From a virus, in IMG/VR virus record IMGVR_UViG_3300021431_002079, positions 1,975-65,974 of that record: a DNA stretch of 64,000 nucleotides; one strand, written 5' to 3'. Positions 32,855 to 61,926 of this stretch are shown here, piece by piece (position 1 is the stretch's first letter; each line of letters opens with the position of its first letter). A program made the translations under genes and the position numbers. The notes beneath the pieces were generated by a model. The model did not search any database, had not been told where the DNA came from, and saw only the letters and a program-made list of their open reading frames with translations.

Positions 32855-32858
32855 AATT

Positions 32859-33455
32859 ATGAAAACAATTAATCAATATATTACAGAATCAAATTACAAG
32901 TCATCAAACTTAGAAGATCTTAAGAAGCAACTTCTAAAAATGCATAATGGTGATCGTATTAATTTCTTGTGGGGTGTATCTCAAAAGGCAACAGATGCTA
33001 CTCAAAAAGATAGATATGTAACATATGCAATGTCTATTGACAAAACTCTAAATAAATATTATACATTCTCTTGTGATTTTATGTTCAGTCAAGGACATGA
33101 AATGGTTAAAGAAATCTGTAAAGATTTAGGAATTAAGAAATGGGCAAGACTTTTAGATATTGCTATAGTTGTAGATTATGAAGATATGGTTAAAATACTT
33201 GATGCAATGCCTAAATATTTTGATAAATACGCTAATAACAAAAAATATTTTAGTTTTGTATCATTTGACTATAAAGAAGCTGAAGAAGAATGTGCTCGTC
33301 AAAAACGTCCATTTGAGATTACTTCATTAGAAGATGAAATTAAAGCCACTGAGCAAGCAATAAAGAATCTTGAACAAAAGAAAGAACAACTTAATAAACT
33401 GAAGAAAGCCCAAGCTGAAGAAGATATGTATAAATGGGCAAATAGTGAAAAATAA
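32859..33455 (+). CDS. CTS-like-leader protein (about 198 aa) with C-terminal coiled coil
   Basis: MKTINQYITESN leader at internal Met of track ORF 32844. Confidence 0.6.
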   Translation: MKTINQYITESNYKSSNLEDLKKQLLKMHNGDRINFLWGVSQKATDATQKDRYVTYAMSIDKTLNKYYTFSCDFMFSQGHEMVKEICKDLGIKKWARLLDIAIVVDYEDMVKILDAMPKYFDKYANNKKYFSFVSFDYKEAEEECARQKRPFEITSLEDEIKATEQAIKNLEQKKEQLNKLKKAQAEEDMYKWANSEK

Positions 33456-33465
33456 AGACAATGTT

Positions 33466-34089
33466 ATGAAGTCACTTAATACTTATATTATAGAATCACA
33501 ACAATCTCATGTAGATGATTTCATTGATTTCTTGCTAAAAAATTCTAAAGAAGGAGAACTTAAGACTAATAATAAATCATACTATGATTATTTTAATGAA
33601 TGTGACCCTTTTGATAATTCAAAGTTTTCACAAAACATTGATATGACTGCTTATGCTGAAGACTATTGTGAAGAACATGAGTTAGATTCTGTATATGATG
33701 ATAAAGAAAACTTCATTAATTATATTAAAGATATAGTTGATGAACAATTGACTTTAGACTTAGATCATAATTTGATAAAGATTGAAAGAGTCATTAGTAT
33801 TGGTGATTCATCATTTTCAAAATATAAAGGAAATATAGGTATATATTGGACTTACATAGAAGGTATGGGTGATTCACATGGTGCTGTAGGTAGTTCAAGA
33901 AACAACATAACTATATGTGCATTAGTGGATCCTAAAGATGTAAATTGGGGAGAGACTATTGCAGCTAATATTATAGATCCAGATGAATGTGAATTAACAT
34001 TAAATGAAGATGCTCCTATACAAATTACAAAGATATTAGATGTTAACAGAAAACCTATAATAGAAAAAAATTTATTATATAAAGCTTAA
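33466..34089 (+). CDS. CTS-like-leader protein (about 207 aa)
   Basis: MKSLNTYIIESQ leader at internal Met of track ORF 33445. Confidence 0.6.
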   Translation: MKSLNTYIIESQQSHVDDFIDFLLKNSKEGELKTNNKSYYDYFNECDPFDNSKFSQNIDMTAYAEDYCEEHELDSVYDDKENFINYIKDIVDEQLTLDLDHNLIKIERVISIGDSSFSKYKGNIGIYWTYIEGMGDSHGAVGSSRNNITICALVDPKDVNWGETIAANIIDPDECELTLNEDAPIQITKILDVNRKPIIEKNLLYKA

Positions 34090-34733
34090 TGAAATCTTTG
34101 CATACATATATAGTCGAAAAATCATCAGATTTATATGGGTCAGAAACTGGTTTAATAATATTTGATATAGATGATACATTAGTTAAAGCAGATTCAAGTA
34201 TTATGAAAATATATAAAAATGAGCCAGGTAAACCAGAGATTGCATTAACAACGGATGAATATGCAAAAGATCCAGATGCAGGTGATTCAAGTAAAAAATC
34301 ATGGTTTGATTATAGAGATTTCAATGATCCATTAAAAGTTTATGATTCTATAGTTAAAGGAACACCATTAATTAAGAATCTAAAAATTATGGATTCATAT
34401 ATTAAAAAAGGTTATGATTTTTGTTTTTTGACGGCTCGTGGTTGTGAAGATGTTGTTAAAAGTGCATTAGATTCATTTTTAGAATTTAGAGATAAAGATG
34501 GTGTATTAAAAAAATTAGGAAATGTATTTAAGAAATCATTATCACATGCTATAAATGATGAAATGAAAAATTATTCAGGTAATAGTGATCCTGAAAAGAA
34601 AGCACAAGTATTAAAAAATTTATGTGATAAATATGATAAAGTGATATTTGTTGATGATGATAAGAAAAATGTAGATGCGGCTAGAAAATTAAATATAAAA
34701 AATCTAACAGTTATTAAAGCTTGGGAAGAATAA
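34089..34733 (+). CDS. HAD-superfamily phosphatase with CTS-like leader (Pnk-phosphatase-like candidate)
   Basis: leader MKSLHTYIVEKS; HAD motif I LIIFDIDDTLV (DxDxT); downstream FLTARG and VIFVDDDKKNV resemble motifs II/IV. Confidence 0.6.
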   Translation: MKSLHTYIVEKSSDLYGSETGLIIFDIDDTLVKADSSIMKIYKNEPGKPEIALTTDEYAKDPDAGDSSKKSWFDYRDFNDPLKVYDSIVKGTPLIKNLKIMDSYIKKGYDFCFLTARGCEDVVKSALDSFLEFRDKDGVLKKLGNVFKKSLSHAINDEMKNYSGNSDPEKKAQVLKNLCDKYDKVIFVDDDKKNVDAARKLNIKNLTVIKAWEE

Positions 34734-34755
34734 ATAAAAAATAAAATAAATATCT

Positions 34756-35406
34756 ATGAAATCATTAAAAGAATATATTATTAATGAATCTTTATCAAAT
34801 GAAATAACTGAATTAAGAAATAAATTAAAAAATTTAGATAAACAAAAAATTTTTGATGGAAATTATAATTTAGATGATTCATTAGATCAAGAATTTTATG
34901 ATATATTAATTTCATTAAATAGTCCAAATTCATCAAATAGTACTTTAATTAGTACATGGAAAATGTTGTTTTCAAAATTAATTGTTGAACCATTAGTTGG
35001 AGAATTAATAGGAGATAACAAATGTGAATACTCTACTATTAAAGTTGATAGAACAGAAAAATGGGATATTAAATATGATAACAATATATTAATAGACATA
35101 AAAGCAACTTATAATAATTATACACATAATTTTGGATTTTCTAAAAAGGATGCAGATTATGTAATAAATTATAATAAACAAGATATTAATAAAAGATATG
35201 TATTATTCGTATACCCAGAAATTAAAACTTGGAATGATGCTACGAAATTATATAAAAATAAATCTGAAGTTGACATGAAACTAATTAGTTATTCAGATTT
35301 TAAAGATATATTAAATAACAATGATTTTGAAGAAAAAAAATCAAACATATTAATTCCATATTCTTTCATTAATGAAAATGATAAATTTAGAAAGTTTAAA
35401 AAATAA
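34756..35406 (+). CDS. CTS-like-leader protein (216 aa)
   Basis: MKSLKEYIINESL leader. Confidence 0.6.
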   Translation: MKSLKEYIINESLSNEITELRNKLKNLDKQKIFDGNYNLDDSLDQEFYDILISLNSPNSSNSTLISTWKMLFSKLIVEPLVGELIGDNKCEYSTIKVDRTEKWDIKYDNNILIDIKATYNNYTHNFGFSKKDADYVINYNKQDINKRYVLFVYPEIKTWNDATKLYKNKSEVDMKLISYSDFKDILNNNDFEEKKSNILIPYSFINENDKFRKFKK

Positions 35407-45518: not shown

Positions 45519-46202
45519 ATGTTAAATATAAACACATATATAAACGAGAAACTTAACATATCCACCAAGTACACCTGTAAACCAAAAGATAAATATGAGC
45601 TTAGAGATATAATAGAAAAACGTCTTGAGAAAGATAAAGATGTAGACTTAAATGATATAGATGTGTCAGATATAACAGATATGTCAATTTTATTCTGGAA
45701 ATTAGACCCTCATAATATAGACATAAGTGAGTGGAATGTTTCAAAAGTTAAAAGCATGGAGAGTATGTTTTTTAGTTGTAAAAACTTTAATTGTGACTTA
45801 AGCAATTGGAATGTCTCTAATGTTTATAATATAACATCTATGTTTAGTGAATGTGAAAGTTTTAATTCAGATTTAAGTAACTGGGATGTTTCGAATGTTA
45901 TAAACATAGATAGCATGTTTGACAATTGTAAAAAATTTAATTGTGATTTAAGTAGTTGGAATGTCTCAAAAGTTAAAAATATGTCTTGTATGTTTTTAAA
46001 TTGTGAAAACTTTAATTCAGATATAAGTGAATGGGATGTCTCAAAAGTTACAGAGATGAGATACATGTTTTATAATTGTAAAAATTTTAATTTTGACTTA
46101 AGTGGTTGGGATGTCTCAAATGTTAAAGATATGACAAAAATGTTTGAAGGTTGTACATCATTAAAAAATAAACCTAACTGGTACCATGAAGAAGATAACT
46201 AA
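45519..46202 (+). CDS. DUF285 / 26-residue-repeat protein with leader (array 2, copy 1; 7 repeats)
   Basis: MLNINTYINEKLNIS; 227 aa. Confidence 0.7.
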   Translation: MLNINTYINEKLNISTKYTCKPKDKYELRDIIEKRLEKDKDVDLNDIDVSDITDMSILFWKLDPHNIDISEWNVSKVKSMESMFFSCKNFNCDLSNWNVSNVYNITSMFSECESFNSDLSNWDVSNVINIDSMFDNCKKFNCDLSSWNVSKVKNMSCMFLNCENFNSDISEWDVSKVTEMRYMFYNCKNFNFDLSGWDVSNVKDMTKMFEGCTSLKNKPNWYHEEDN

Positions 46203-46716
46203 TTACATACAAGAAAAACTAAATTTATCTAAGTACACTTGTAAACCAAAAGATAGATTAGAACTTTTAAGTATAATAGAAAGACGTCTTGAACGAAATA
46301 AAGATGTAGATTTTAATGACATTGATGTATCAGATATAACGGATATGTCTTTTCTATTTGAAGAATTAGATCCCCATAATATAGATATAAGCGAGTGGAA
46401 TGTTTCAAAAGTTGAAGATATGAGGAGTATGTTTAACGGGTGTGAAAATTTTAATTGTGATTTATCTGAGTGGGATGTCTCAAATGTTAAACACATGAAC
46501 CAAATGTTTAAAAATTGTAAAAACTTTAATTCAGATTTAAGTAGCTGGAATGTATCACAAATTAAATATATGTTTGATATGTTTGATGGGTGTAAAAAAT
46601 TTAATTCAGATTTAAGTGGATGGAATGTATCTAATGTTAAAGATATGTCAGATATGTTTGATGGATGTAATTCGTTAAAAAATAAACCAAATTGGTACAA
46701 TGAAAAAACTAAATAA
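46186..46716 (+). CDS. DUF285 / 26-residue-repeat protein with leader (array 2, copy 2)
   Basis: MKKITNYIQEKLNLS; 17-nt overlap with previous gene. Confidence 0.7.
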   Translation: MKKITNYIQEKLNLSKYTCKPKDRLELLSIIERRLERNKDVDFNDIDVSDITDMSFLFEELDPHNIDISEWNVSKVEDMRSMFNGCENFNCDLSEWDVSNVKHMNQMFKNCKNFNSDLSSWNVSQIKYMFDMFDGCKKFNSDLSGWNVSNVKDMSDMFDGCNSLKNKPNWYNEKTK

Positions 46717-47221
46717 TTACATACAAGAAAAACTAAATTTATCTAAACACATTATTAAACCAAAAGATTCAGATGAACTTAGACATATAATAAAGGAACG
46801 TCTTAAAAAAGATAAAGATGCAGATTTAAATGATATAGATGTATCAGGTATAACAGATATGTCATATTTATTTAATAATTTAGACCCTCACAATATAGAT
46901 ATAAGTGAATGGGATGTCTCTAATGTTATAAACATGAGCAAAATGTTTTTTTATTGTGAAAATTTTAATACCGATTTAAGTGGGTGGGATGTTAGTAATG
47001 TTAAAAATTTTTGGTTTACATTTTATGAATGTTACAATTTTAATTCTGATTTAAGTAATTGGGATGTATCACATGCTCAAGATATATCTTATATGTTTTA
47101 TGGGTGTAAAAAAATTGATTGTGATTTAAGTGATTGGGATATATCAAATATTAAATATATGGATGGTACATTTAATGGATGTAATTCGTTAAAAAATAAA
47201 CCAAGTTGGTATAAGAACTAA
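46700..47221 (+). CDS. DUF285 / 26-residue-repeat protein with leader (array 2, copy 3)
   Basis: MKKLNNYIQEKLNLS; 32 nt identical to the 5' end of 46186. Confidence 0.7.
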   Translation: MKKLNNYIQEKLNLSKHIIKPKDSDELRHIIKERLKKDKDADLNDIDVSGITDMSYLFNNLDPHNIDISEWDVSNVINMSKMFFYCENFNTDLSGWDVSNVKNFWFTFYECYNFNSDLSNWDVSHAQDISYMFYGCKKIDCDLSDWDISNIKYMDGTFNGCNSLKNKPSWYKN

Positions 47222-48609: not shown

Positions 48610-50724
48610 ATGAGTACATTAGTTTTAACAGGTTTAATTGGATTTGCGGCATTAATATTTGTCGTAACCGTATGGGGAATTCTTTCTCGTTATCGTAGAA
48701 GTGCACCAGATGAACTTTTGGTTGTATTCGGTAAGTCTGGAAAGATTCAAGTAACAGGTGAAGATGGTAAACAGCAAACATTGGTTGTACCATCAAAGAT
48801 TATTCAAGGTGGAGGTACATTTGTTTGGCCTATTATTCAGGATTGGAAAAAGATGTCAATGAAGCCTATTCAGATTAAGGCAACAGTTGACGGTATTGAT
48901 TCTCAGGCTATTCAATTACACTTACCAGTAGTATTAACAACAGCAATTTCTCGTGATAAGGAAATTCAACAGAATGCAGCTACTCGTTTCTTGAGTGCTA
49001 CTGCTGATGAGATTGAATCACAGATTAAGGAAATCTTGATTGGTGAAACTCGTGCTATTATGGCGACAATGCTTATTGAGGAAATTAACGCTGACCGTGA
49101 TAAGTTCTTGACAAAGGTTCGTACAAACCTTGAACAGGAGTTGACAAAGATTGGTTATGATGTTACAAATATTAACATATCAGAAATTACCGATGATGCC
49201 AACTATATTAAGAACATGGGTCAGAAAGCTACAACTCGTAAGCAAGCTGAAGCTGAGGCAGATATCGCTGAACAAAGAAAGACAGGTAATGTAAAGATTG
49301 CTAATACAAAGAAGGAAGAGGAAATTCAGGTTGCTGCTGCTGAAAAGGAAAAGCAAGTAACGGTTAATCAGACTCGTCAGGAGCAGGAAGTACAGGTTGC
49401 TGCTATTGAAAGAGATAAGCAAATTCAGTTGGCAGAAGCTGAGAAGGAACGTGAATCTGGTATTGCTGACCAGGAAGCAGAAAAGGCATCTCGTATTGCT
49501 AATGCACAGGCATTGGCAGAATCAAAGAAGGCAGAAGCTAAGGCAAAGCAGATTGCAAGTGTATCTGCCGCAGAGGCAGATGCTGCATCAAAACAGGCTG
49601 AAGCTGATGCCAGAAAAGTAGCCGCTGTTGCCGCTCGTAAGGCTGAAGCTGAATCTGCAAAGGCTAAATCTGAAGCTGAACAGACTAAGGCAATTGCAAC
49701 ATCACAGGCAGATGCTGAAGCAACAGAGAACGAACAGGAAGCAAAGAAGCAAACTCGTATTGCACAAGCTAATCAGGCTAAGGAAGCAGAAATTGTAAAG
49801 GCAACTCAAGAGAAGGAATCTAAGGCCGCTGAGTATGAATCTGAGAAACGTAAGCGTAAGGCTGAGGCTGATAAGAAAGCTGGTGTTGCAGAACAGATAG
49901 CAAAGATTGAGGTAGCCCAAGCTACAGCTAAGGCAGGTCAAGCTGAAGCAGATGCAAAGAAGATTAAGGAAACCGCAATGGTTGATGCTGAAATGTCAGT
50001 TGCAAAGACTCGTCAAGAAAGACAGATAGAAGTTAATAAGGCACAAGCTAAGGCTGCTGAAGAGCAATTGAATGCTACCGAGATTGTACCTGCACAAAAG
50101 GCAAAGGAAAAGGCCGTTATTGAAGCAGAAGCAATTAAGCGTAAGGCAGAACTTGAAGCTGAAGCAGTTAAGGCAAAGTTACTTCGTGAAGCTGAAGCAG
50201 AAGCAGAAGCAACTCGTATTAAGTTGAATGCTGAAGCTGAAGGCACAAAGAATAAGTTGATGGCAGAAGCCGAAGGTAAGCGTGCAAGTTTGCTTGCTGA
50301 AGCAGAAGCAATACAGCAAAAGGAATTAGCACCTGCTATGGCTCTTGAAAGAATGGTTGCTGCAGTTGGTGGAAATCCTGACCTTGTTGTTCAGTATAAG
50401 ATGGTTGACCAATATAAGGGTATTGCTGAAGCACAGAGTCATGTCTTGGAGCATCTAAATCTTGGTCAAGTTACAGTTTATGGTGATAAGAACACTGGCG
50501 CTGATTTTGCTAAGAGTTTCATTGAAAAATTTGCTCCAGCATTAACTATGATTAATAGTGGTGTTAAGGATCAATTCAAAGGATTATTTGAAATTGGACA
50601 AAAATCAAATGCATTAAATGGCCCTAAGGATCCAGATCCTGATGGAAATGATGGTGGTTCAAATAAAAAGACTACTAAAAAGTCAAAGAAAGATGTTGAG
50701 CCAATTTTTGAGGAAGCAAAATAA
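48610..50724 (+). CDS. SPFH/band-7 flotillin-like protein (YqiK/FloT-like) with long A/E/K-rich coiled coil
   Basis: N-terminal TM LVLTGLIGFAALIFVVTVWGIL + SPFH-like core (YRRSAPDELLVVFG...QTLVVPSKIIQGGGTFVWPIIQ...), about 400-aa EA-repeat coiled coil, basic C-terminal tail. Confidence 0.65.
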   Translation: MSTLVLTGLIGFAALIFVVTVWGILSRYRRSAPDELLVVFGKSGKIQVTGEDGKQQTLVVPSKIIQGGGTFVWPIIQDWKKMSMKPIQIKATVDGIDSQAIQLHLPVVLTTAISRDKEIQQNAATRFLSATADEIESQIKEILIGETRAIMATMLIEEINADRDKFLTKVRTNLEQELTKIGYDVTNINISEITDDANYIKNMGQKATTRKQAEAEADIAEQRKTGNVKIANTKKEEEIQVAAAEKEKQVTVNQTRQEQEVQVAAIERDKQIQLAEAEKERESGIADQEAEKASRIANAQALAESKKAEAKAKQIASVSAAEADAASKQAEADARKVAAVAARKAEAESAKAKSEAEQTKAIATSQADAEATENEQEAKKQTRIAQANQAKEAEIVKATQEKESKAAEYESEKRKRKAEADKKAGVAEQIAKIEVAQATAKAGQAEADAKKIKETAMVDAEMSVAKTRQERQIEVNKAQAKAAEEQLNATEIVPAQKAKEKAVIEAEAIKRKAELEAEAVKAKLLREAEAEAEATRIKLNAEAEGTKNKLMAEAEGKRASLLAEAEAIQQKELAPAMALERMVAAVGGNPDLVVQYKMVDQYKGIAEAQSHVLEHLNLGQVTVYGDKNTGADFAKSFIEKFAPALTMINSGVKDQFKGLFEIGQKSNALNGPKDPDPDGNDGGSNKKTTKKSKKDVEPIFEEAK

Positions 50725-50840: not shown

Positions 50841-51464
50841 TTGTTAACTATTATGAATTACGATGGAAAATTTGGGACTGAAGATCCGTTAGATTCAAAG
50901 GGTCAATTAGATGATTTATTTGTTAATAGTGAAGCTCCAGATTTAGGAGACACAGATGAGACATTTGAAACTCCAATATTAGTTATAGATATGGAAGAGG
51001 TCGATAAGCGAACCTTAGATAGAGCAACAGATATAACAAATAAATTGGCGTCATATTATTTTGATCAAAAATATATAGATAATCATCCATACGTAACATC
51101 AAAAATAACTCAAGAAATAGATAATATTAGAAGATTATTAAAAATGTTGGCAGTTAATGAAAAAGCTCAAGATACATTAATAATGTCAATAACAGGATAT
51201 TCTTCTAAAGGAACATTGTATTCTTCTTTAACATCTTTACAAAATTCAATGTTACAAATGCAATCACAATTAAATACATTAACAACAAATCTTGAAGATA
51301 TATTTAAAGAAATGCAAGAAAATTGTGATAAGACATTCCAAGAAAAAGAAAAAGAAGAAGCAGAAGATGGATCTATTGTTGTTCGTGGATCTCGTGATTT
51401 TATTAAAGAAATTGAAAAGTCATTACGTAATAATAAAACTCAACAGAGCGAAAATGCTGCTTAA
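50841..51464 (+). CDS. hypothetical coiled-coil acidic protein (207 aa), possible prohead core/assembly protein
   Basis: immediately upstream of the gp21-like gene (position of gp67/gp68 in T4); TATAAATA 11 nt upstream. Confidence 0.4.
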   Translation: MLTIMNYDGKFGTEDPLDSKGQLDDLFVNSEAPDLGDTDETFETPILVIDMEEVDKRTLDRATDITNKLASYYFDQKYIDNHPYVTSKITQEIDNIRRLLKMLAVNEKAQDTLIMSITGYSSKGTLYSSLTSLQNSMLQMQSQLNTLTTNLEDIFKEMQENCDKTFQEKEKEEAEDGSIVVRGSRDFIKEIEKSLRNNKTQQSENAA

Positions 51465-51531: not shown

Positions 51532-53280
51532 ATGACAAACAAACGTTGCTTGATATATGAAACTTTGGGAAGTGTTTCAAATCTTGAAGTGTTTGAAGGT
51601 AAAGGCGATGGTTTAATGCGTTTGCATGGTGTTTTTGGTGTATGTGGTGTAAAGAATCAAAATAATCGTGTTTATGATAAAACTAATTATGGACAGATGG
51701 TTGAAGCTTTACAACAGAAAATTAAAGAATCAGGTTGTCCTGGTGAATTGGAACATCCAAATTCAATGAATATTAATCTTGAAAATGTTTCACACAAGAT
51801 TGAGGAAATTAAAATGAATGAAGATGGTACAGTAACAGGTACAATAGTTCTTTTAAATACCCCAAAAGGTCAAATAGCTAAAGCTATTGTTGAAGGTGGT
51901 TTACCACTATTTATTTCATCACGTGGTGCTGGTACAATTACTAATGAAGGACGTGTAACTTTATCTTCAATTCAAACGTATGACTTAGTTGGTACTCCTG
52001 GTTTTAGTCAAGCTAAATTAACTTTAAAGACAAATCAGACTTTAGAATGTCTTAATGAAGGTCTTGATGAAGGAAATGCAGTTTGGGCAATTGTCGAAGG
52101 TGAAGATTCTACAGATGATTTATTATCAGATGATGACGACGATAAAAAGAAAGAAGATAAGTCTGATGATAAAAAGGAAGAAGATTCTAGCAAATCAGAC
52201 GATAAGAAAGATGACGATAAGTCAGATGACAAATCAGATGAAGAAGACAAAAAACCAAAAGACAAAAAACCAAAGAAGGAAAACTCTGATAAAGAAGATA
52301 ACAAAAATAATGATGAAGATATTAATATGAAAGATCTTAAAGATGCTATAGATAAGTTATCTGAAAAGGTAACTACTCTTGAAAGTGAACTTCATGTAGC
52401 TCAAGAATCTTTAAAGGAATGTAAGTCAGTTGAACCAGTAAACTACAAAGCAATAGAACGTTGGGTTAATCAAGAATTTTCTCCAAGTTTTATGAATCAA
52501 GTTGAAGAATGTATTGATGACAAAATTTCTGAAGCTGAAATGAACACAAAAATCATGATAGATGATAAAGTATCTGAATCTTTAACTAATGTATGTGAAG
52601 GTGTTCAATCTTGGATTACTAAAGAATTTGCTCCAGAAGTACAAAACTGGATTACTGAAGAATTTGCTCCAGAAGTACAAAATTGGATCACTGAAGAATT
52701 TGCTCCAGAAGTACAAAACTGGGTATGTGAAGAATTCTCTCCAGAAGTACAAAACTGGATCACTGAAGAATTTGCTCCAAAAGTACAAGACTGGATTACT
52801 GAAGAATTTGCTCCAGTTGTTGAAGGTTGGGTTAATGAAGAATTCTCTCCAGAAATTCAAAACAAAGTAAATGAAAATGTTTCTGCATTTATGGAATCAC
52901 AAAAGGCAGGACGTTTAGATGAAATTGATAGCTTATTAGAATCAATTGAATCAAGTGGTAATAATGTTGATGTAAACAATATTATTAAAGAACAACAAAC
53001 TGCTAATAAATTCGCTGGTATTTATTGTGTAGATAATATGCCTGCTGAATATGCTCCAAAATGGAATACATTAACTGAAAGTCGTCAACAAGAAATTGTT
53101 AGATCTTCAAAGATGTATGATTTCACAAAAGAAGGTGTTTTAGAATCATTCTGGTCTAGTATTGATTTTGAAAAAGTTAACGAATCTAAGGAAACTAATG
53201 TTTTCGAAAATGATCCTATTTACAAATATCAAAACAATATTATTAAGCATATGAAATCACTACGTGGTTATAATGTATAA
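51532..53280 (+). CDS. gp21: prohead protease (T4 gp21-like) fused to acidic scaffold-like region with tandem repeats
   Basis: N-terminal about 190 aa (LMRLHGVFGVCGVKNQNNRVYDK...GELEHPNS...ISSRGAG) resembles T4 gp21 (GxFGVFGExNxNxRxYP ... GELxHP ... STRG); then a D/K/E low-complexity spacer, a coiled coil and a 7x 12-aa repeat. Confidence 0.6.
   Translation: MTNKRCLIYETLGSVSNLEVFEGKGDGLMRLHGVFGVCGVKNQNNRVYDKTNYGQMVEALQQKIKESGCPGELEHPNSMNINLENVSHKIEEIKMNEDGTVTGTIVLLNTPKGQIAKAIVEGGLPLFISSRGAGTITNEGRVTLSSIQTYDLVGTPGFSQAKLTLKTNQTLECLNEGLDEGNAVWAIVEGEDSTDDLLSDDDDDKKKEDKSDDKKEEDSSKSDDKKDDDKSDDKSDEEDKKPKDKKPKKENSDKEDNKNNDEDINMKDLKDAIDKLSEKVTTLESELHVAQESLKECKSVEPVNYKAIERWVNQEFSPSFMNQVEECIDDKISEAEMNTKIMIDDKVSESLTNVCEGVQSWITKEFAPEVQNWITEEFAPEVQNWITEEFAPEVQNWVCEEFSPEVQNWITEEFAPKVQDWITEEFAPVVEGWVNEEFSPEIQNKVNENVSAFMESQKAGRLDEIDSLLESIESSGNNVDVNNIIKEQQTANKFAGIYCVDNMPAEYAPKWNTLTESRQQEIVRSSKMYDFTKEGVLESFWSSIDFEKVNESKETNVFENDPIYKYQNNIIKHMKSLRGYNV
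52612..52863 (+). repeat. 7 tandem copies of a 36-bp in-frame repeat (W[IV]TEEF[AS]PEVQN)
   Basis: direct reading: tggattactgaagaatttgctccagaagtacaaaac x7 with few substitutions. Confidence 0.9.
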
Positions 53281-53366: not shown

Positions 53367-55139
53367 TTGAATATAAATAATATGTTTATTAACGAACAAA
53401 ATGGCGCAGTTACATGGGAAAAGATGTTGAAGGAAAACTTCAATGTTAATGACCAGGAAAAACTTAACTGGGTTTCTCAATATGCTGCAATTCATGAAAT
53501 TCATGAATCACAAATCGGTGTTAATGGTAATGCAGTTGCTGTTAGTACAGCTCAACCTGGTGTTGGTCCAATGTATGCAACTCCATTGAATACAACTGGT
53601 ATGGGTAACCCTTATGCACCAAGTCAACTTAGTACAACAAGTACAGCACCTTATGATGCTACTAATCCAACAGGTTCATTCTGGGGTCAAACTCCAGGTT
53701 CTGGTGATATACCAGTATCTACACTTCCAATGGCTCTTAACATTGCATTGTTAACTATTGGTCTTGAACTTGTTCCAGTAATTCCTTCAAAAGGTCCTTG
53801 GGCATTATTAACATATATGGATTTCCCTTATGCTGGTGGTAAACTTGGACGTGTTAATGAAACTTCATTTGACGGTAAGGGTGAAGGTAATGAGAACAAA
53901 CCAATCTATGTTAAGATTAAAGGTTTAACACTTTCACAAATCAAAGAATTACGTGAAAGTAATGAAGCTGTTGCTGATGCTATAGTAACTGTTGGTGATT
54001 TCACAGGTAAGTGGATCGCATTCGGTCGTATGGATGCTTGCCCTCTTGTTAAGGTTGTTAGTGTTGCTAAAAAGGACAATCAAGATCAATCTCTTGCTGA
54101 AGCATTTGATGCTGCTAAAACTGTTGTAGTTGGTGGAAAGACAATTACACTTGATACAGAGACAAATCAAAAGGTTACTCCTGATTTCGTGCAAACTTCT
54201 GTAGACCTTGTTGATGGTTTCGCAAACTTCGCTACTGGTAAGAAAGAAGCAATGACACGTGCTCAAAACGAAACTGGTACAGGTAATACAATCGGTCTTC
54301 GTTTATTCAGTAAATGGATTCAAATGGGTTCATACGAAGTTACTGGTACAGTTACTCGTCAACAACTTCAAGATCTTCCACTTTATGGTGTTGATGCTGT
54401 ATCTAAGGTTATGGAAGCACTTCAAAACGAAATCTCTCAACACATTAACCAACGTATCCTTGAAAGAGTATTCGCTCTTGGTGTTACTAACGCTGTACAA
54501 CAAAAGGCACGTCAAGGTGTAGACCTTAACTTATGGATGGGTAAATCAGGTGATGTTGATTTCGCAGATGCATTCCCAGGTGTTCCACACTTCACAGATA
54601 TTTATGGACACGATTTCAAAGCTGACTGGGGTAATGTTAAGAATGCTGAAGTTAATACATCTGCTGAAAACTTATCTACTCGTCAACGTCGTATCATGTC
54701 TAAGGTGCTCGCTGCTGCTAACTTAATCCAATTAGTTGGTCGTCGTGGTCGTCCTACATGGATCGTAACAAGTGGTCAAGTTGCTACTGCATTACAAGAT
54801 GTATCAGGTTATGTTGTTGCTCCAATGCTTAACACATTATCTCAATCTAACACTCAAAACCTTTACCACGCTGGTACAATCGCTGGTCTTCAAGTTTATG
54901 TAGACCCATACATGGATTGGAACGATACTCGTATCTGTATTGGTCGTAAGGGTGATGGTAACTCACCAGGTGTTATATTCATGCCTTATATACTTGCAGA
55001 CACAGTTTCTATTACTGCAGAAGGTACAATGGCACCTAAGATGCTTGTTAACAGCCGTTATACTATTGCTGAAGCTGGATTCTATCCAGAGTTGCAATAT
55101 TTCACAATTGCTGTTGGTTCTGAATTTGGTATTATCTAA
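53367..55139 (+). CDS. gp23: major capsid protein, T4 gp23-like
   Basis: C-terminal half aligns by eye to T4 gp23: TWIVTSGQVATALQDV ~ NFIIASRNVVNVLASV; GLQVYVDPYMDWNDTRICIGRKGDGNSPGVIFMPYILA ~ GKYRVYIDQYAKQDYFTVGYKGPNEMDAGIYYAPYVAL; N-terminal propeptide contains I-x-E sites (IHEIHE); real start could be the Met at 53382. Confidence 0.85.
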   Translation: MNINNMFINEQNGAVTWEKMLKENFNVNDQEKLNWVSQYAAIHEIHESQIGVNGNAVAVSTAQPGVGPMYATPLNTTGMGNPYAPSQLSTTSTAPYDATNPTGSFWGQTPGSGDIPVSTLPMALNIALLTIGLELVPVIPSKGPWALLTYMDFPYAGGKLGRVNETSFDGKGEGNENKPIYVKIKGLTLSQIKELRESNEAVADAIVTVGDFTGKWIAFGRMDACPLVKVVSVAKKDNQDQSLAEAFDAAKTVVVGGKTITLDTETNQKVTPDFVQTSVDLVDGFANFATGKKEAMTRAQNETGTGNTIGLRLFSKWIQMGSYEVTGTVTRQQLQDLPLYGVDAVSKVMEALQNEISQHINQRILERVFALGVTNAVQQKARQGVDLNLWMGKSGDVDFADAFPGVPHFTDIYGHDFKADWGNVKNAEVNTSAENLSTRQRRIMSKVLAAANLIQLVGRRGRPTWIVTSGQVATALQDVSGYVVAPMLNTLSQSNTQNLYHAGTIAGLQVYVDPYMDWNDTRICIGRKGDGNSPGVIFMPYILADTVSITAEGTMAPKMLVNSRYTIAEAGFYPELQYFTIAVGSEFGII

Positions 55140-55191: not shown

Positions 55192-55233
55192 CAAAAAATG
55201 AGAGTGATAACTTCGGTTATCACTCTTTTTTTA
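55192..55233. terminator. bidirectional terminator hairpin (A6-stem-loop-T7)
   Basis: aaaaaa tg agagtgataa cttcgg ttatcactct ttttttt; overlaps the stop of the minus-strand gene 55220-56446. Confidence 0.65.
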
Positions 55234-56446
55234 GCCATTCTTTTAGATCTTTTATATTAAAAAATTCTAAGTAATTTAATTTATTTTCTTTAGCAGTATT
55301 TCGTTTTTTAACATCCATAATTGTCCATGTTATTATTGCACTTTTATAAAATTTTGTATTTTTTAACTCCCATATATTTTTCTTGTTTATATCTGCTTCA
55401 GTATTTTCAAATGGTTTAAGACCATGAGTCCACATATAATTGCATTCTATATATAAATCTAAACATGGAACATAGAAATCACAACGCCATGGATATTTAT
55501 CACTTTTGTATTGCCTTATAACATCTGGATATTTTTCTTTTAACAATAAATAAGATTCATCTTCAGGTTTTGATGTATTAAATGTTTTATTTTTATTTTT
55601 TGTATTTTGAATTTTATTAATAACACTTGATAATTTTGATGGATGTGTTACATTATATTTTTTAATATATGTGTTTTTTGTTTTTTCAATATTATTATAA
55701 TTTTCGTCTCCGTATTTATCTAGTTTTGTCTTTTTTATTTTTTCAGTGTTAATATAATAATATCCATATTTATCTATAATTGTTTTTCTAGCTTTATTTC
55801 TATTATTATAAGTAGCATCATTATATTTTTTAATTTTTGTTAAGAAAACTTTGTTTTTTATTTCATTTGAACTCATTGGAGAATTACCTCCAAATTTTTT
55901 TATATTTGTAGTTTTTCTTTTTATTTTTGATTCTTTTGTTTTAGCTGCTTCAATTCCTTTGTTGTGTATTTCTGTAATTTTTAATACAGATTCTTCCCCA
56001 TATCGTTTTAAATTAGTTTCCTTTGCTTTATTTGTATTGTTAAATGTCTTATCTCCATATTTTTCTAATTTTGTTTGTAATGTTTTTTGTATATTATTAC
56101 ATGACCCATATTTTTCTAATGATGTTATTTGTTGTTTTTTATAAACATTTGGATCTTTTTGACGACAAGATATTGAACAGTGTTTAGTAAATATCCCTTT
56201 ATTATTTGGTTTACCGATAAACTTTAATTTATTACCACACACTGGGCATTTTGGTCTATCATATATCTTATACACAATTCTTAATAAAGACTCATAAATA
56301 CTTTCACTATCATCAAATCTATTTAATAAATAGTTATAAATATTTCTATAACACTTTTGTTTTTGATTAAATCTTCTATAAGCTTTGGTTGAAGTATTGT
56401 TATCCCAAAATAGTTCACTTATTATGTTATCATGATTGTAATTCAT
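55220..56446 (-). CDS. homing-endonuclease-like protein with Zn ribbon and KYG(V)-type repeats (copy 1)
   Basis: CPVCGNKLKF...CSISC zinc ribbon; about 8 repeats of [LI]xKYGxxxxNNxxKxKxT (homing-endonuclease-associated repeat type); conserved C-terminal domain YKSDKYPWRCDFYVPCLDLYIECNYMWTHG...AKENKLNY shared with 56430 and 62630. Confidence 0.5.
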   Translation of the reverse strand: MNYNHDNIISELFWDNNTSTKAYRRFNQKQKCYRNIYNYLLNRFDDSESIYESLLRIVYKIYDRPKCPVCGNKLKFIGKPNNKGIFTKHCSISCRQKDPNVYKKQQITSLEKYGSCNNIQKTLQTKLEKYGDKTFNNTNKAKETNLKRYGEESVLKITEIHNKGIEAAKTKESKIKRKTTNIKKFGGNSPMSSNEIKNKVFLTKIKKYNDATYNNRNKARKTIIDKYGYYYINTEKIKKTKLDKYGDENYNNIEKTKNTYIKKYNVTHPSKLSSVINKIQNTKNKNKTFNTSKPEDESYLLLKEKYPDVIRQYKSDKYPWRCDFYVPCLDLYIECNYMWTHGLKPFENTEADINKKNIWELKNTKFYKSAIITWTIMDVKKRNTAKENKLNYLEFFNIKDLKEWLKKE

Positions 56447-57389
56447 TCACATATTCTCTTGCTTCATTAACATTCCACAATTCTTTATAATTTAATTTAT
56501 TTTCTTTTGCTATGTTTCTTTTTCTTACATCCAAATCCGTCCATGTATATATAATAGAATCATATTGAGTTCTTTTATTGTTATTATATTGTTTAAGCAA
56601 ATTAGATTTATTAATTAGATTATTTAATTCATTTTTATCTTCTATAGAATTTGTAAACGGTCTCCCATGATGAAAATGACTATAATTACATTCTATATAT
56701 AAATCTAAACTACATATATAGAAATCACAATTAAATGGATACTTATCTGAAGAGTACTGTCTTATTATATCTTTTTCATCAAATATTGTTTTTAATAATT
56801 CATATGTTTCTTCTTCTGGTTTAGATTTATTAAACTTACCATTTGCCTTTATTGTATTATTTCTTTTTTCTCTAATAGATTTAACAAACATTCCATTATA
56901 AACCCCATATTTGGTTTTCATACCATTTTGACGTTTAATTTCTATAATCTTACAAGCATTATCCCATGACCCATATTTTTTAGATAATGTGTCTTTTCTA
57001 TGTTGAATCTTTTCAGGAGTATTTATGTTCCACCCAAGTACACCATTATGTTTATTTCTATCTGTGTATTGTTTCTTTTTTATTGTATTTTTATTTTTTC
57101 CAGAACATCTATTTGAACAGAATGTTGCAAATAACTTATTACCTTTACCTATGAATTTTACTGGTTTACCGCACGTTTTACATACTGGGCGAATGTTACA
57201 ATTATGACGAATTCGATATAATGTTTCCTTAAAAGATTCAGAATCATCATACCGATTTTCAATATAATTAATTATGTTTTTATATTTTGTTTTTTTCTTA
57301 TAGTGTCTTTTATATTTATTTAAATAAGATTGATTAAAATGCCAATCATCAATAAAAAATATATTAGACAATATTTTATCATAGTTCAT
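56430..57389 (-). CDS. homing-endonuclease-like protein (copy 2, fewer repeats)
   Basis: CKTCGKPVKF...CSNRC; same C-terminal domain (YSSDKYPFNCDFYICSLDLYIECNY...AKENKLNY); 17-nt overlap with copy 1. Confidence 0.5.
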   Translation of the reverse strand: MNYDKILSNIFFIDDWHFNQSYLNKYKRHYKKKTKYKNIINYIENRYDDSESFKETLYRIRHNCNIRPVCKTCGKPVKFIGKGNKLFATFCSNRCSGKNKNTIKKKQYTDRNKHNGVLGWNINTPEKIQHRKDTLSKKYGSWDNACKIIEIKRQNGMKTKYGVYNGMFVKSIREKRNNTIKANGKFNKSKPEEETYELLKTIFDEKDIIRQYSSDKYPFNCDFYICSLDLYIECNYSHFHHGRPFTNSIEDKNELNNLINKSNLLKQYNNNKRTQYDSIIYTWTDLDVRKRNIAKENKLNYKELWNVNEAREYVNELQS

Positions 57390-58689
57390 TCTTATTTATT
57401 ACAACAATATATTCATAATTTTTTTTAAAATGAGAAGTATTAACTATTTCTTCTTTAATATATTTCTTATATTTATTTAACTTATCATCAGTAACAAAAA
57501 CATATCTTTCACAATCATAATTTTTTAAACATATATCTATCCATTTATCACATGAATAATTTAATGATTTTACACCAGGCCATTCCTCAATATCTTCATA
57601 AGGAGAACATGTAAATAAACATTCATATTTTCCAGTTTCTTTTGTTGAATCTTTTTTAGAAATTACTGCAGAGTTACTAGTGTATTTTGATAAAAATTCA
57701 TATATTTCATTTGATTCATCAACGGAGTATTCACATAAATCTTGACCTATATAATTTTTATTAGATGCTAAACACCCAATCATTCTACCACTATAACCAC
57801 TAAATGGATCAAATATTGTATTAAACTTATTGAGATATTTTTCAATTATATATTTTGCAAGTTTTGGTTTAAAATATGTAACATGTGGAAACATACGAGA
57901 TGATGATAAACCAGCTCCATAACTATTTTCCATAAATACACCTCTCAAAAAATATATTAATCGTCCTTGTCCTTTAAACCAATCACTATATCTTAATCTA
58001 TTTCTATAAAATGATTTAAATACTTCAGGGTCATTTTGAATTAATTTCCACCCTTCGTATGGAGATATATTACCCTTTATGTTAGCTAATATTATACTCT
58101 GATGAAAATATGTAACTAAGTTTGATGAATACTTTGTTTTTAATTCTCCTGGATTTTTTTGAAGATTTTTAAACTCATTCTCGCATTTTTTCAATGTTGG
58201 TTGAATAAATGACAATGGAGGAAAATCTATATATTGAATTCTCTCATACTCGCGTTCCCAGAATTTTTCTACAATAATATCGCAAAATTCTTTAGAACAG
58301 TTACCTTTATATTTTTGTTGTGGTAATATATATTTCTTATCATATTCATATGCTTCATAAAATGATTTCAAATCTTTTAATTCAGAATCAAACCAAGATT
58401 CATCTATAATAGGATTACCATCATTATATATTATTTTTATATCACCAAACTCAACATCGTCATTTGAGTATAAACATTGAATCATCATATCCATTAAAAT
58501 ATGAGTTAATTGTTCTTTTGTTGGTAATTCCCAATGAATACATTCATCTTCTTCTAATTCAAACCATGTATCTAAATTATGCGATTCATAATTTGATGGA
58601 ATTGGTATTATGTACACTAAGTCATTAATTTTTTTCAATAATCCATCAATATTGTATTTAGTAATAATATCGTAAGCTTTATCTATCAT
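57379..58689 (-). CDS. hypothetical protein (436 aa), possible SAM-dependent methyltransferase
   Basis: IFDPFSGYSGRMIG resembles MTase motif I (DPFxGxG); TCSPYED weakly resembles motif IV ([DNS]PP[YF]); low certainty. Confidence 0.35.
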   Translation of the reverse strand: MIDKAYDIITKYNIDGLLKKINDLVYIIPIPSNYESHNLDTWFELEEDECIHWELPTKEQLTHILMDMMIQCLYSNDDVEFGDIKIIYNDGNPIIDESWFDSELKDLKSFYEAYEYDKKYILPQQKYKGNCSKEFCDIIVEKFWEREYERIQYIDFPPLSFIQPTLKKCENEFKNLQKNPGELKTKYSSNLVTYFHQSIILANIKGNISPYEGWKLIQNDPEVFKSFYRNRLRYSDWFKGQGRLIYFLRGVFMENSYGAGLSSSRMFPHVTYFKPKLAKYIIEKYLNKFNTIFDPFSGYSGRMIGCLASNKNYIGQDLCEYSVDESNEIYEFLSKYTSNSAVISKKDSTKETGKYECLFTCSPYEDIEEWPGVKSLNYSCDKWIDICLKNYDCERYVFVTDDKLNKYKKYIKEEIVNTSHFKKNYEYIVVINKNEL

Positions 58690-58872: not shown

Positions 58873-61800
58873 ATGGCAATTCCAGTACATTTGCAGCAAT
58901 TTAAAGCTGCAGGTATATACCGAGTAGTATTTGATCACTCTTCTATTGTTAATGAAGATACTCAAACATTACGTTTGGTTGTTGGTTATTCTGATAAAGG
59001 TCCTTTCAATGTACCTGTATTAGTTAAAGACCCATACGTTTTCAAATCAATATTCGGTGATATATCTAAACGATTAGAGAAACGTGGAATATTCTTCCAT
59101 CATCTTGCTCTTCAAATGTTACAAGTAAGTCCAATTCTATGTCTTAATCTTAAGAAATTTGATGGTGAAACAGTTCAAGCAGCTACTATTAGTACAGAAT
59201 TTAACAGTAAGTCCGGTATTATTGATACTGTAACACTTAATGTTGAAGATATTTATGACACAACTAGATTCTGGACACTTGATGCAGAAAAATTAAATGG
59301 ATTACGTACTGTTGAAGGTTCAACATTAAATCAATTTATTAATATTTCTGCCACAAATGTTAAAGCTACTTCATGTACATATTTTATTCGTAAAGCTTCT
59401 GGTTCAAAAGTTTCTGGTTATAACATAACTGTTAATGATTGGTATTCAGATGAAGAAATTCCTGAATTCATGATTCCTTATAGAAATAATCTTGTATCAG
59501 ACTTCTTTGCTGAAATATATGTTTTCAGAGGTAAATTTGATGCTAAACAAGTTCTTTCATCAAGCACATTAAAGAATTACTTTATTGTTACTAATGATTT
59601 AGATGAAAACGGATTACAAGTCCTTAAACTTAAAGATAAAATTATTAATGCATTTGGTGATTCTGTAGATACACTTGATGAATTATATAAAGATGAAACA
59701 TCTGGTGCAATTGGTCATTATGTTGGTGCTATCATACCACAATTTAAGAATAAACAAGGTGCTTATGCATGTCTTGATGTTTTATTCAATAGCGATATTG
59801 ACCAACATAATATGATGATGTCATTTAATGATGAATTGATTGATGAAGAAGATATTAATTTAGATCTTTCTGGTCGTTCATTAATTCCAACCGATGATAA
59901 TAATAATAAATCAGTTAATTCTTCATTAAGTCTTAATAAGTTATTTAGTGGTGAAGCTACAACATCTGTTTTAGGAAATAATGTTGCTCCTGTCGTTGTT
60001 GATAAGACAACATTCTTAGCTAATGTTTATAATGTTGAAACTGGAACTCCAATTCAACAATTAAATAATGGTAAGACACGTATAACTGGTACACTTTATG
60101 TTAAAGGTTATCAAGAAAATACTGATACCGCTAGTGAAATCTTATTAAAACAAGTTGGCTCAAATACAACAGTTAAATTATATTTTGATACAGCCGATGG
60201 TGCTAAAGAAGCTGCTAAGAAATTGGGTGTAGTATTTGATGAAGATGGTAATCCTATCGATGAGAAAGGTACTTACTTCACTGCAGAAGGCGCATTTGAA
60301 AATGCTGAAGATCCATTATACGGACCTGCACAAGTAATTACTTCTATATCACGTCTTGAAAACAAAACTGAAAATAATGATGGCATAGAGTATACAGATA
60401 TTGATGAAAATGCTAAACCAACATTAGTTGATGTTGAACCTGTAACAAAAGTTGTTTATACAAATCCTAACACTGAAAATTCTGTTTATGGTTCTTCAGT
60501 ATCATTCTTAGATTATAATGATGCTAACTGGGAATATAAAGAAGATGTTGAAATAATAAAAGGTGTTAAACAACCTGCATTTGTTTGTGATGAAGAATAT
60601 GATACAACACTTATAAGTATCCTTCAAAAGGGTGATTGCTTAGTTGGTGTTGATAATGCATATGACAAGGATAATGATGGAGATATTGAAAACGATAAGG
60701 ATGGATATTATGATACAGTAAATGTTCAAGACTTCGGCACTGTATATGATGAAAACGGTGACTTCAAGTTCCATTACATTATTGTTTCAGGTAAACCACA
60801 AGAATACCAAGATACATCTAATGCTAACAACAAATACTTAGTTCGTATCGATGCTGGTCTTAACCAAGAAATTGGTTCAATGGTCCCACAATATCTTGAA
60901 GGTTATACATATAAGAATTCACGTCCAATGGGAACAGGAATGTATGCAAAAGTAAAATGGCAAGAATTTATTCTTTCTGCAATTACTGATTATAAAGGTC
61001 TTCGTACTGCACTTCTTAGTAAGTCAGAAGTTGATTATCGTTATGTAATAGATACATTCGCATCATACCCTGTATCTAACCTTAAGAATGTGCTTTCTTA
61101 CTTATGTAAAGAAAAACAATCAGCATTCTGTATTTCAAACTTCCCTGCAGTTAAAGATTTCATTAAGTGTCCTTACACATCATTCACTGATTCTAAGGGT
61201 ATCTTCAATGTTGATTATATTATCAAGGGATATAATAAGAAGAAAGCTGCATCTGTAATGTTCAGCTTACCAACAGAAAATGATGGTGCTTCATTCATAG
61301 CATTCTATACACCACTTAAATTCACTGATGGTTATATTGATACATTAGTTCCTGCTGCAGGTTTAGTATCTAACTTATTCATTAATAAGTACATTTCACG
61401 TCAACCATATTATATCGTTGCTGGTCCAAACTACGGACGTATTACAGCACCTGGTTTAATTGGTCCTGACTATAAATACTCTGCTGATGAATTACAACTT
61501 ATCGAACCATTTGGTGTTAACGTTATGGTTTACCGTCCTAACTTCGGTACATTCATTAATGCTAACCAAACTGCAAAACAAACTCCTGTTTCTGCACTTT
61601 CTAAAGTTAATGTTCGTGAGTTAGTTATTTATCTCCAAGATGAAATTGAAAAAGTTCTTCAAGCTTATCAATGGGAGTTCAACAATACTCGTACTCGTAA
61701 CGCTATACTTGATAGAGCAAATCAAATCTGTTCTATTATAGCTGCTAATGGTGGTATTCAAGCTTATAGAAATATTATGGATGAATCTAATAACACTCCT

Positions 61801-61926
61801 GATATCATCGATAATGAAATGGCTGTTATTACTACTCATATTGAGCCTGGTATGGGTTGTGGTAAGATGGTACAAGAACTTCATATTTGGAGAACTGGTC
61901 AAATGGATGCTAATATTATAGATTAA
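58873..61926 (+). CDS. gp18: tail sheath protein, T4 gp18-like (1017 aa)
   Basis: C-terminal region aligns by eye to T4 gp18: KVNVRELVIY ~ RINVRRLFNM; QWEFNNTRTRNAIL ~ LFELNNAFTRSSFR; MDESNNTPDIIDNEMAVITTHIEP ~ CDTTNNTPSVIDRNEFVATFYIQP; TATAAATA 13 nt upstream. Confidence 0.8.
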   Translation: MAIPVHLQQFKAAGIYRVVFDHSSIVNEDTQTLRLVVGYSDKGPFNVPVLVKDPYVFKSIFGDISKRLEKRGIFFHHLALQMLQVSPILCLNLKKFDGETVQAATISTEFNSKSGIIDTVTLNVEDIYDTTRFWTLDAEKLNGLRTVEGSTLNQFINISATNVKATSCTYFIRKASGSKVSGYNITVNDWYSDEEIPEFMIPYRNNLVSDFFAEIYVFRGKFDAKQVLSSSTLKNYFIVTNDLDENGLQVLKLKDKIINAFGDSVDTLDELYKDETSGAIGHYVGAIIPQFKNKQGAYACLDVLFNSDIDQHNMMMSFNDELIDEEDINLDLSGRSLIPTDDNNNKSVNSSLSLNKLFSGEATTSVLGNNVAPVVVDKTTFLANVYNVETGTPIQQLNNGKTRITGTLYVKGYQENTDTASEILLKQVGSNTTVKLYFDTADGAKEAAKKLGVVFDEDGNPIDEKGTYFTAEGAFENAEDPLYGPAQVITSISRLENKTENNDGIEYTDIDENAKPTLVDVEPVTKVVYTNPNTENSVYGSSVSFLDYNDANWEYKEDVEIIKGVKQPAFVCDEEYDTTLISILQKGDCLVGVDNAYDKDNDGDIENDKDGYYDTVNVQDFGTVYDENGDFKFHYIIVSGKPQEYQDTSNANNKYLVRIDAGLNQEIGSMVPQYLEGYTYKNSRPMGTGMYAKVKWQEFILSAITDYKGLRTALLSKSEVDYRYVIDTFASYPVSNLKNVLSYLCKEKQSAFCISNFPAVKDFIKCPYTSFTDSKGIFNVDYIIKGYNKKKAASVMFSLPTENDGASFIAFYTPLKFTDGYIDTLVPAAGLVSNLFINKYISRQPYYIVAGPNYGRITAPGLIGPDYKYSADELQLIEPFGVNVMVYRPNFGTFINANQTAKQTPVSALSKVNVRELVIYLQDEIEKVLQAYQWEFNNTRTRNAILDRANQICSIIAANGGIQAYRNIMDESNNTPDIIDNEMAVITTHIEPGMGCGKMVQELHIWRTGQMDANIID

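Follow-up and report, generated by a model that had tools for sequence, protein, structure and literature searches.

The window analysed here is a stretch of 64,000 nucleotides of viral DNA (positions 1,975 to 65,974 of the IMG/VR record IMGVR_UViG_3300021431_002079), and its source genome is that of a huge AT-rich phage. The gene under study lies at positions 51532 to 53280 and encodes a protein of 582 amino acids (aa), in which a prohead protease domain of the T4 gp21 type is followed by a disordered spacer and a long, repeat-bearing C-terminal half that probably acts as an internal scaffold of the head. A gp23-like major capsid protein gene lies directly downstream, as had been noted in a first-pass annotation made from the letters of the window. 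The features of the locus, all on the + strand, include:

51532..53280 (stop codon included): putative protease-scaffold fusion gene, 582 aa, a single ATG-to-stop open reading frame (ORF) in the ORF listing.
51607..52026: Peptidase S77 (T4 gp21-type) prohead protease domain, residues ~26-165 (Pfam, PHROG, AlphaFold2, Foldseek).
51754..51756: codon of His75, the inferred catalytic His, in the motif GELEHP (profile alignment to GELNAP of 5jbl, the T4 gp21 crystal structure).
51916..51918: codon of Ser129, the inferred catalytic Ser, in the motif ISSRG (aligned to the Ala of VASRG in 5jbl).
52030..52320: disordered spacer rich in D, K and E, residues 167-263 (composition; AlphaFold2 predicted local distance difference test, pLDDT, 31-44).
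52057..52098: candidate self-release sites L-N-E176 and I-V-E189 at the boundary of protease and spacer (motif reading).
52327..52329: codon of Met266, candidate internal start of a scaffold-only product (conservation of a boundary Met; start context).
52327..52512: two predicted helices, residues 266-298 and 305-327 (AlphaFold2, pLDDT mostly 67-84).
52462-52497: isolated degenerate eighth repeat copy, WVNQEFSPSFMN, residues 311-322 (W311), 50 residues upstream of the array.
52531..52905: single long predicted alpha-helix, residues 334-458 (~125 residues; AlphaFold2).
52612..52863: seven tandem copies of a 36-base-pair (bp) repeat encoding 12 aa (Tandem Repeats Finder).
53023..53166: conserved, small and compact C-terminal helical domain, residues 498-545 (AlphaFold2, pLDDT 85-96).
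53215..53265: predicted C-terminal helix, residues 562-578 (AlphaFold2, pLDDT ~77-80).
53367..55139: gp23-like major capsid protein gene (Pfam Gp23, E 7e-31).

The N-terminal domain belongs to the gp21/S77 family by sequence, catalytic residues and predicted assemblin-like fold. It had been described as gp21-like at first pass, and profile comparison bears this out: Pfam Peptidase_S77 (PF03420) matches residues 29-152 (E 6.6e-12; 45.8 bits versus a cut-off of 27), with S80 as a weaker match, and PHROG 207 (head maturation protease) matches the domain with an E-value of 2.5e-42. The 5jbl structure is found by a five-sequence profile of the protease domain (E 1.6e-4), and it is reached only in this way, as a direct phmmer search of the full-length protein against PDB sequences returns nothing useful. 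His75 and Ser129 each stand opposite an Ala in 5jbl, and these Ala residues are, as judged from the alignment, probably the mutated catalytic residues of an inactive construct. Among 53 diverse homologues, His75 and Ser129 are each at least 90% conserved and Asp151 (51982-51984) is invariant. In AlphaFold2 models built on an alignment of the 53 diverse sequences, residues 30-160 of the protease have pLDDT values above 90, and a Foldseek search with the modelled protease places the 5jbl chains of T4 gp21 at the top (E 1.4e-7, target template modelling score 0.64), followed by herpesvirus assemblins (the proteases of human cytomegalovirus, pseudorabies virus and Kaposi's sarcoma-associated herpesvirus).

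The protease and the scaffold-like region share one intact ORF. A sequencing error at the join between separate protease and scaffold genes had been named at first pass as one finding that would undo this description, and a fusion arising from such an error is very unlikely because an independent metagenome contig of the European Nucleotide Archive encodes the identical 582-aa protein. The one-ORF layout is, moreover, common to hundreds of homologues from many samples and to two finished genomes of cultured phages. On the contig with the identical protein, the publicly called capsid gene encodes 585 aa, and thus the capsid gene probably starts at the ATG at 53382. A megablast comparison of the 8-kilobase (kb) region with cultured phages yields no match.

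With the C-terminal 318 residues as query, 1,545 proteins are recovered, mostly of 540-557 aa with an S77/S80 domain, and the contigs that carry these homologues reach 466 kb. An exhaustive search of 50%-identity representatives yields 175 clusters at E <= 1e-3, of which 89 reach E <= 1e-10; the clusters checked for it carry S77 domains. Among cultured phages, the nearest relatives are pT24 and PTm1, two jumbo phages of Tenacibaculum, with 40-48% identity over the protease domain only. The pT24 protein (BAV39266.1, 527 aa, annotated 'prohead core scaffold') has a long C-terminal half and adjoins the capsid gene upstream, as does the PTm1 protein (BBI90692.1, 564 aa, annotated 'prohead core scaffolding protein and protease'). 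In four related loci (L003, L004, L011 and L012), the protease-scaffold gene is followed by the capsid gene with zero genes between them; upstream lies a gene of ~2,300-2,900 aa (in L004 followed by two more, of 377 and 355 aa), and downstream of the capsid gene lies a gene of ~1,020-1,120 aa (sheath) and then, in L011 and L012, where the locus reaches that far, a 194-aa gene. Separate protease, intervening and capsid genes stand in the same order in T4 (21, 22, 23), in Sphingomonas phage PAU (gp151 protease, gp152 annotated 'scaffolding') and in Pseudomonas phage PA5oct, where a 210-aa protease is followed by a 368-aa charged, helical-looking product (gp330, annotated hypothetical) and then by the capsid protein. 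The fusion had been set against the separate T4 genes at first pass; it is a clade-level trait of uncultured huge phages and no peculiarity of this window, for more than 1,500 proteins have it as a rule, as do those of the cultured pT24 and PTm1.

The spacer that joins the two halves has the D/K-rich character first described for it, with D 27%, K 21% and E 13% over residues 166-265 and a net charge of -19; two smaller 15-bp repeats are detected by Tandem Repeats Finder in the low-complexity stretch upstream of the 36-bp array. The C-terminal ~317 residues are predicted by AlphaFold2 to be almost entirely helical. The long helix holds all seven repeats at pLDDT ~77-88, falling to 75 at its C-terminal end, and is followed by short predicted helices at residues 461-490 (pLDDT 53-60). 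Residues 455-582 modelled separately agree with the full-length model, and the compact domain within them holds the C-terminal positions that are conserved best (in the 53 homologues, P504 never varies, while F540 and W541 reach at least 90% conservation). A fold search with residues 455-582 finds nothing better than E 3 in PDB, and its matches in BFVD are limited to the pT24 protein and further long proteins named prohead core protein serine protease. Matches of Trp_leader1, MatP and DUF445 to the C-terminal half are sub-threshold and are set aside as repeat-driven noise.

The repeat array is reported by Tandem Repeats Finder with a period of 36, 7.0 copies, 82% matches, no indels and a score of 329, and its seven units translate as WITKEFAPEVQN, WITEEFAPEVQN (twice), WVCEEFSPEVQN, WITEEFAPKVQD, WITEEFAPVVEG and WVNEEFSPEIQN. 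The units had been called near-perfect copies, which holds for units 1-3 and 5 (32-34 of 36 nucleotides identical) and does not hold for units 4, 6 and 7, which share only 23-31 of 36 nucleotides with the others. Across 262 units of 33 diverse proteins, the family consensus is W(96%)-[IV]-[TV]-E(69%)-E(76%)-[FY]-[AS]-P(66%)-E-[VI]-[QE]-[NK]. The hydrophobic positions 2, 6 and 10 of the repeat form an exact four-residue period, and on an ideal helix the Trp would rotate by 120 degrees per unit. The comparison of repeat number across relatives that had been suggested at first pass finds 4-11 copies, with a mode of seven and then eight among close relatives; all homologues on contigs of 253-466 kb (which are not necessarily complete genomes) have seven copies. 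The unit itself also varies, being 16 residues long in PTm1 and in the homologues P0175, P0176, P0215 and P0216, and 28 residues long in P0125.

The uniformity of the array indicates lineage-specific concerted evolution, because synonymous codons are homogenised within arrays, lineage by lineage. In this window, the Pro codon is CCA in seven of seven units and the Val10 codon is GTA in five of six, whereas in the related locus L003 these codons are CCT and GTT in eight of eight units each; L004 is mixed. Outside the repeats, CCA accounts for 67% and GTA for 38% of their respective codon families, and mean unit identity is 0.44 within proteins versus 0.39 between proteins. Of the two explanations offered at first pass, recent expansion or concerted evolution, the latter is retained. 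The array is not recent but ancient and under selection, because 4-11 copies and the 16- and 28-residue variants are spread across distant members; it is present in family members that are only ~30% identical.

The assignment of the C-terminal half as a scaffold draws on its gp22-like position, its predicted architecture and its enrichment in candidate cleavage motifs. The half has a net charge of -34 and, as modelled, is an acidic helical region, rich in potential protease sites, that lies between the protease-coding and capsid-coding sequences. It is also elongated in the model and has a conserved C-terminal knob, which is how internal scaffolds such as P22 gp8 and P2 gpO are usually built. 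The characterised gp21-type enzymes (of T4, phiKZ, 201phi2-1 and SPN3US) all cut after Glu (PMC5694885). The motif [LIV]-x-E occurs 21 times in residues 266-582 versus 9.4 +/- 2.5 times in shuffled sequences (z-score 4.6, ~2.2-fold), and comparable enrichment is found in T4 gp22 (z 3.9), PA5oct gp330 (z 4.6) and the C-terminal halves of the pT24 (z 5.2) and PTm1 (z 6.6) proteins. The corresponding scores are -1.1 for the 207-aa ORF upstream of the protease gene, 0.4 for a Glu-rich SPFH coiled-coil protein encoded at 48610-50724, and 1.5 and 2.4 for the capsid proteins of T4 (gp23) and of this window, respectively. Were every [LIV]-x-E in residues 266-582 cut, 22 peptides with lengths of 5-30 residues would result, among them a series of 12-mers released from the repeats.

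The repeats had been proposed at first pass to carry protease sites, and candidate sites are indeed present: the best-conserved motif of the repeat is [IV]-x-E at positions 2-4, which is of the T4 L/I-x-E type and may be a cleavage site. At six of the seven repeat units, [LIV]-x-E is retained in 31-39 of ~52 homologues. At the putative self-release sites, [LIVM]-x-E is retained at E176 in 34 of 52 and at E189 in 32 of 53 diverse homologues, and a further candidate site on the N-terminal flank of the protease domain, I-Y-E10, is retained in 45 of 52. The N-terminal region of the capsid protein likewise has a conserved [IV]-x-E (AIHE, AITE and TINE among relatives; AIHE here).

Thus, the product of the gene is fairly likely to have two functions in the head assembly of this huge, AT-rich phage, as a gp21-type protease joined to an internal scaffold. 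The C-terminal half would be the positional equivalent of T4 gp22. Its conserved C-terminal domain would contact the capsid protein, while the repeat-bearing helical rod would self-associate and space the shell from the core, and the tether would bring the protease into the prohead by co-assembly. Once the shell is complete, the protease would free itself at the conserved [LIV]-x-E sites E176 and E189 and would then dice the scaffold at its many [LIV]-x-E sites, one per repeat, into peptides of 5-30 residues that exit the head, much as T4 gp21 acts on gp22. Unequal recombination or gene conversion would keep the array uniform while its copy number drifts between 4 and 11.

Several points weigh against this assignment. 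By hhalign, the family profile has no similarity to T4 gp22 (phrog_237; E 0.38), PAU gp152 or PA5oct gp330 (E 0.15-0.47), whereas the C-terminal halves of pT24 and PTm1 match at E 1e-19. A PHROG scan of the C-terminal half likewise returns no family at E <= 1, while T4 gp22 finds phrog_237 at 1.6e-92. Membership of the gp22 family is therefore not claimed for the C-terminal half, and of the protease and scaffold fusion described at first pass, what stands is a scaffold-like acidic helical region in the gp22 position, not homology to gp22. The PDB and BFVD fold searches match the C-terminal domain to no known scaffold or coat-binding domain. The abundance of the motif may in part be a by-product of how acidic amphipathic helices are composed, although no such excess is seen in the E-rich SPFH coiled coil, and the cleavage specificity of the protease in this clade is presumed from motif statistics. 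Finally, a Pro every 12 residues and a 4.0-residue period misfit a canonical coiled coil, and the single-helix model may be wrong in detail; it is for this reason taken only as a 'helical rod'.

The most serious competing explanation is that the C-terminal extension is a targeting or tethering arm that recruits the protease and is then auto-cleaved, with another protein or the capsid propeptides forming the true scaffold. The proteases phiKZ gp175 and SPN3US gp245 have been proposed to use their short C-terminal regions in this way, the C-terminus of giant-phage proteases being thought to direct the enzyme into the prohead and then to be lost through autoproteolysis. The missing gp22 homology would fit an arm of this kind, and the ~130-residue region that precedes the Gp23 domain of the capsid protein could itself scaffold. 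An extension of ~400 residues, however, far exceeds a targeting tail; it sits in the gp22 position, its motif enrichment is on par with that of T4 gp22, and zero genes lie between the protease and capsid genes in five related loci. The 207-aa ORF and the SPFH/coiled-coil protein were considered as alternative scaffolds encoded upstream and were rejected, as neither is a conserved neighbour or enriched in the motif. A mere targeting arm is, on balance, unlikely.

Two further explanations are far less probable still. That the single ORF is a sequencing or assembly artefact that merges separate protease and scaffold genes can draw on the low-complexity spacer, which is hard to assemble, and on the runs of N and the 313-339-aa 'scaffold-only' calls of public scaffolds. 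In the two cases examined, both on long contigs, these short calls arise because N runs interrupt the D/K-rich spacer (L003 ~3740-3840, L004 ~3870-3970) while the protease is in frame upstream, and the short homologues are not accepted as naturally split genes. With an identical protein on an independent contig and a continuous ORF in the homologues and the two finished genomes, an artefact is scarcely credible. It is equally improbable that the repeat region forms a DNA-binding domain of the KilA-N type, or some other domain of unrelated function, in place of a scaffold element. Pfam KilA-N (PF04383) matches residues 305-387 (52444-52692) at 33 bits, above the cut-off of 23.8, and the same match is precomputed in public data for several truncated homologues. 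The matched stretch is, however, predicted by AlphaFold2 to be all-helical, which would misfit the alpha+beta fold of KilA-N, and it spans periodic W..EF.P units that align equally well to tape-measure repeats; the match is regarded as a false positive. For annotation, a practical point is that public assemblies often break in the spacer and so yield mis-called genes of 313-339 aa, and that the repeat triggers false KilA-N assignments. Some fragment calls also carry spurious source names (dihydroneopterin aldolase, MgtE and MazG for P0016, P0113 and P0119).

The protease-scaffold reading has a possible extension in the likeness of the array to tail tape-measure repeats. Tape-measure proteins have variable numbers of W/F-marked helical repeats that serve as tape marks, usually with an 11-residue period (PMC3271669). 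The exhaustive search also matched the repeat regions of large non-protease proteins, of which P0238 is confirmed as a tail tape-measure protein by its matches to PHROGs that include 4372 and 58. The P0238 units WVQNEGLPMLQT, WFTETAIPAVQD and WFFNTFIPAAGQ align in register with the array, with W1, P8, [VL]10 and Q11 in common, and the P0238 repeat region matches the array at E 1e-15 by pairwise BLASTP and at E 2.2e-7 by phmmer. The array thus has the W/F-marked repeats of the tape-measure type, with a 12-residue period, W in 96% of the 262 units and 4-11 copies. Both systems have helical tandem repeats, W (and F) at fixed spacing and a variable copy number; by contrast, the period is 12 here rather than 11, and the module belongs to the head, not the tail. 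The likeness may go back to a common ancestral 'ruler' module of helical type, or it may be convergent or compositional.

A more ambitious proposal, which we consider doubtful, is that the W array is a tape-measure-like head ruler, in which copy number and a period of 12, 16 or 28 residues govern how long a radial scaffold rod is and thereby help to fix the very large capsids of these megaphages, and that nested products are made: a rare full-length protease-scaffold and an abundant scaffold started at Met266 from an A-rich spacer site that lacks a Shine-Dalgarno sequence. If true, this would be the first scaffold and size-determination mechanism identified for a huge-phage clade. Similar W repeats are also seen elsewhere. 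P0173 (L010 8001-12359; 1,452 aa) has dozens of 12-residue W repeats of the form WL[DN]E....., such as WLNEEFAPARPD and RPGWLDETIDTT, and is encoded among the head genes of a 46.7-kb contig from an unrelated phage, between terminase/lysozyme genes and an 874-aa gene. Such repeats also occur in P0188, P0196 and P0238; the proteins that bear them include a putative tail-fibre-like protein of 1,567 aa and the confirmed tape-measure protein.

A nested scaffold-only product from Met266 is a tentative possibility, somewhat less likely than not. A Met occurs within a 12-residue window at the boundary of spacer and helix in 38 of 53 diverse homologues, versus a background of 24%, and is absent from the most distant members, including pT24 and PTm1. 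In a position-weight model of start context trained on 44 real starts, Met266 scores 6.3 bits, which places it at the 99.6th percentile among 1,469 internal ATGs and in the upper quartile of real starts. The 30 nucleotides before the boundary Met are strikingly A-rich even in GC-richer relatives (37-48% GC); the nested start is held as conjecture since a spacer rich in Asn, Lys, Asp and Glu is A-rich in any case. Gene starts in the window generally lack a Shine-Dalgarno sequence and stand behind A/T-rich leaders, often with TATATA/ATATAAA-like strings within 30 nucleotides (e.g., on the + strand, 20917, 23045, 27066, 36638, 39180, 45519, 58873 and 62012), which may be a T4-late-promoter-like element. 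No TATA-like motif is visible upstream of Met266 on reading the sequence, and any nested product would have to be initiated internally, on the mRNA that also encodes the full-length protein. In lambda C/Nu3 and herpesvirus UL26/UL26.5, abundant scaffold is made from an internal in-frame start, and T4 gene 21 also has annotated internal initiation.

Compared to the T4 gp21/gp22/gp23 system, the locus shares the protease family, the gene order, an acidic helical C-terminal half and a roughly two-fold enrichment in [LIV]-x-E; it differs in that the equivalents of gp21 and gp22 form a single polypeptide, joined by a disordered spacer of ~100 residues, and in that the W-marked 12-residue array and the conserved C-terminal domain are not seen in the gp22 sequence. 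The pT24 and PTm1 proteins share the fused architecture upstream of the capsid gene, homologous C-terminal halves, W-marked repeats and the [LIV]-x-E enrichment, whereas the repeats number six in PTm1, each of 16 residues, pT24 carries no more than 2-3 scattered copies, and in both the acidic low-complexity stretch comes after the repeats and not before them. Fusions of an N-terminal maturation protease to a C-terminal scaffold in one frame are also found in P2 gpO, lambda C/Nu3 and herpesvirus UL26/UL26.5, with scaffold parts that are unrelated to the much longer, repeat-bearing one described here. In P2 gpO, the protease spans residues 1-141 and the scaffold residues 195-284 (PMC7552001), and protease-scaffold fusions as such are thus already known. 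A literature search for a gp21-gp22 fusion or for the W-marked repeat found no description; the repeat module with its tape-measure likeness, the cleavage-motif evidence for a gp22 equivalent and the candidate nested start appear to be undescribed. To the open question of how giant phages scaffold and size their capsids, this family brings a concrete candidate scaffold, tethered to the maturation protease and bearing repeats that can be counted, differ between relatives and are akin in appearance to those of tail tape-measure proteins; the cultured PTm1 and pT24 make direct testing possible.

Further genes of the window lie on both sides of this pair. Three minus-strand genes (55220-58689) stand between the capsid gene and a tail-sheath gene (58873-61926; phrog_34521). 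The first of them (55220-56446) matches homing endonuclease PHROG 3339, and the first two are clear paralogues that share N-terminal Cys motifs and a C-terminal 'DKYP..CDFY...LDLYIECNY' block. Homing endonucleases also follow directly after the capsid genes of PTm1, PA5oct and T4, while in L003, L004, L011 and L012 the next large gene follows the capsid gene with no called gene in between. Upstream, the 207-aa ORF (50841-51464, + strand; 203 aa in the public call) adjoins the protease gene and has an acidic N-terminus; it has no Pfam or PHROG family match and is not found at that position in the related loci examined. The 704-aa SPFH protein (48610-50724, + strand), with an N-terminal SPFH/Band-7 domain (Pfam E 7e-21) and an Ala/Glu/Lys-rich region of ~400 residues, is encoded by the second gene upstream of the protease gene, a position at which the same four loci lack it. 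Elsewhere, runs of ORFs of ~200 aa resemble arrays of tandem paralogues (23045-26994, 32357-35406 and 45519-47221). Nearly the same 30 nucleotides precede two of the starts, at 25505 and 25955 (aaaaataaacc.aa.tggta.aaaagttaa ATGAAAGCT; window 25475-25984), a similar string precedes the start at 46700 (window 46670-46710), and the ORFs at 45519-46202 and 46700-47221 match the same PHROGs (17273, 22899 and 3649).

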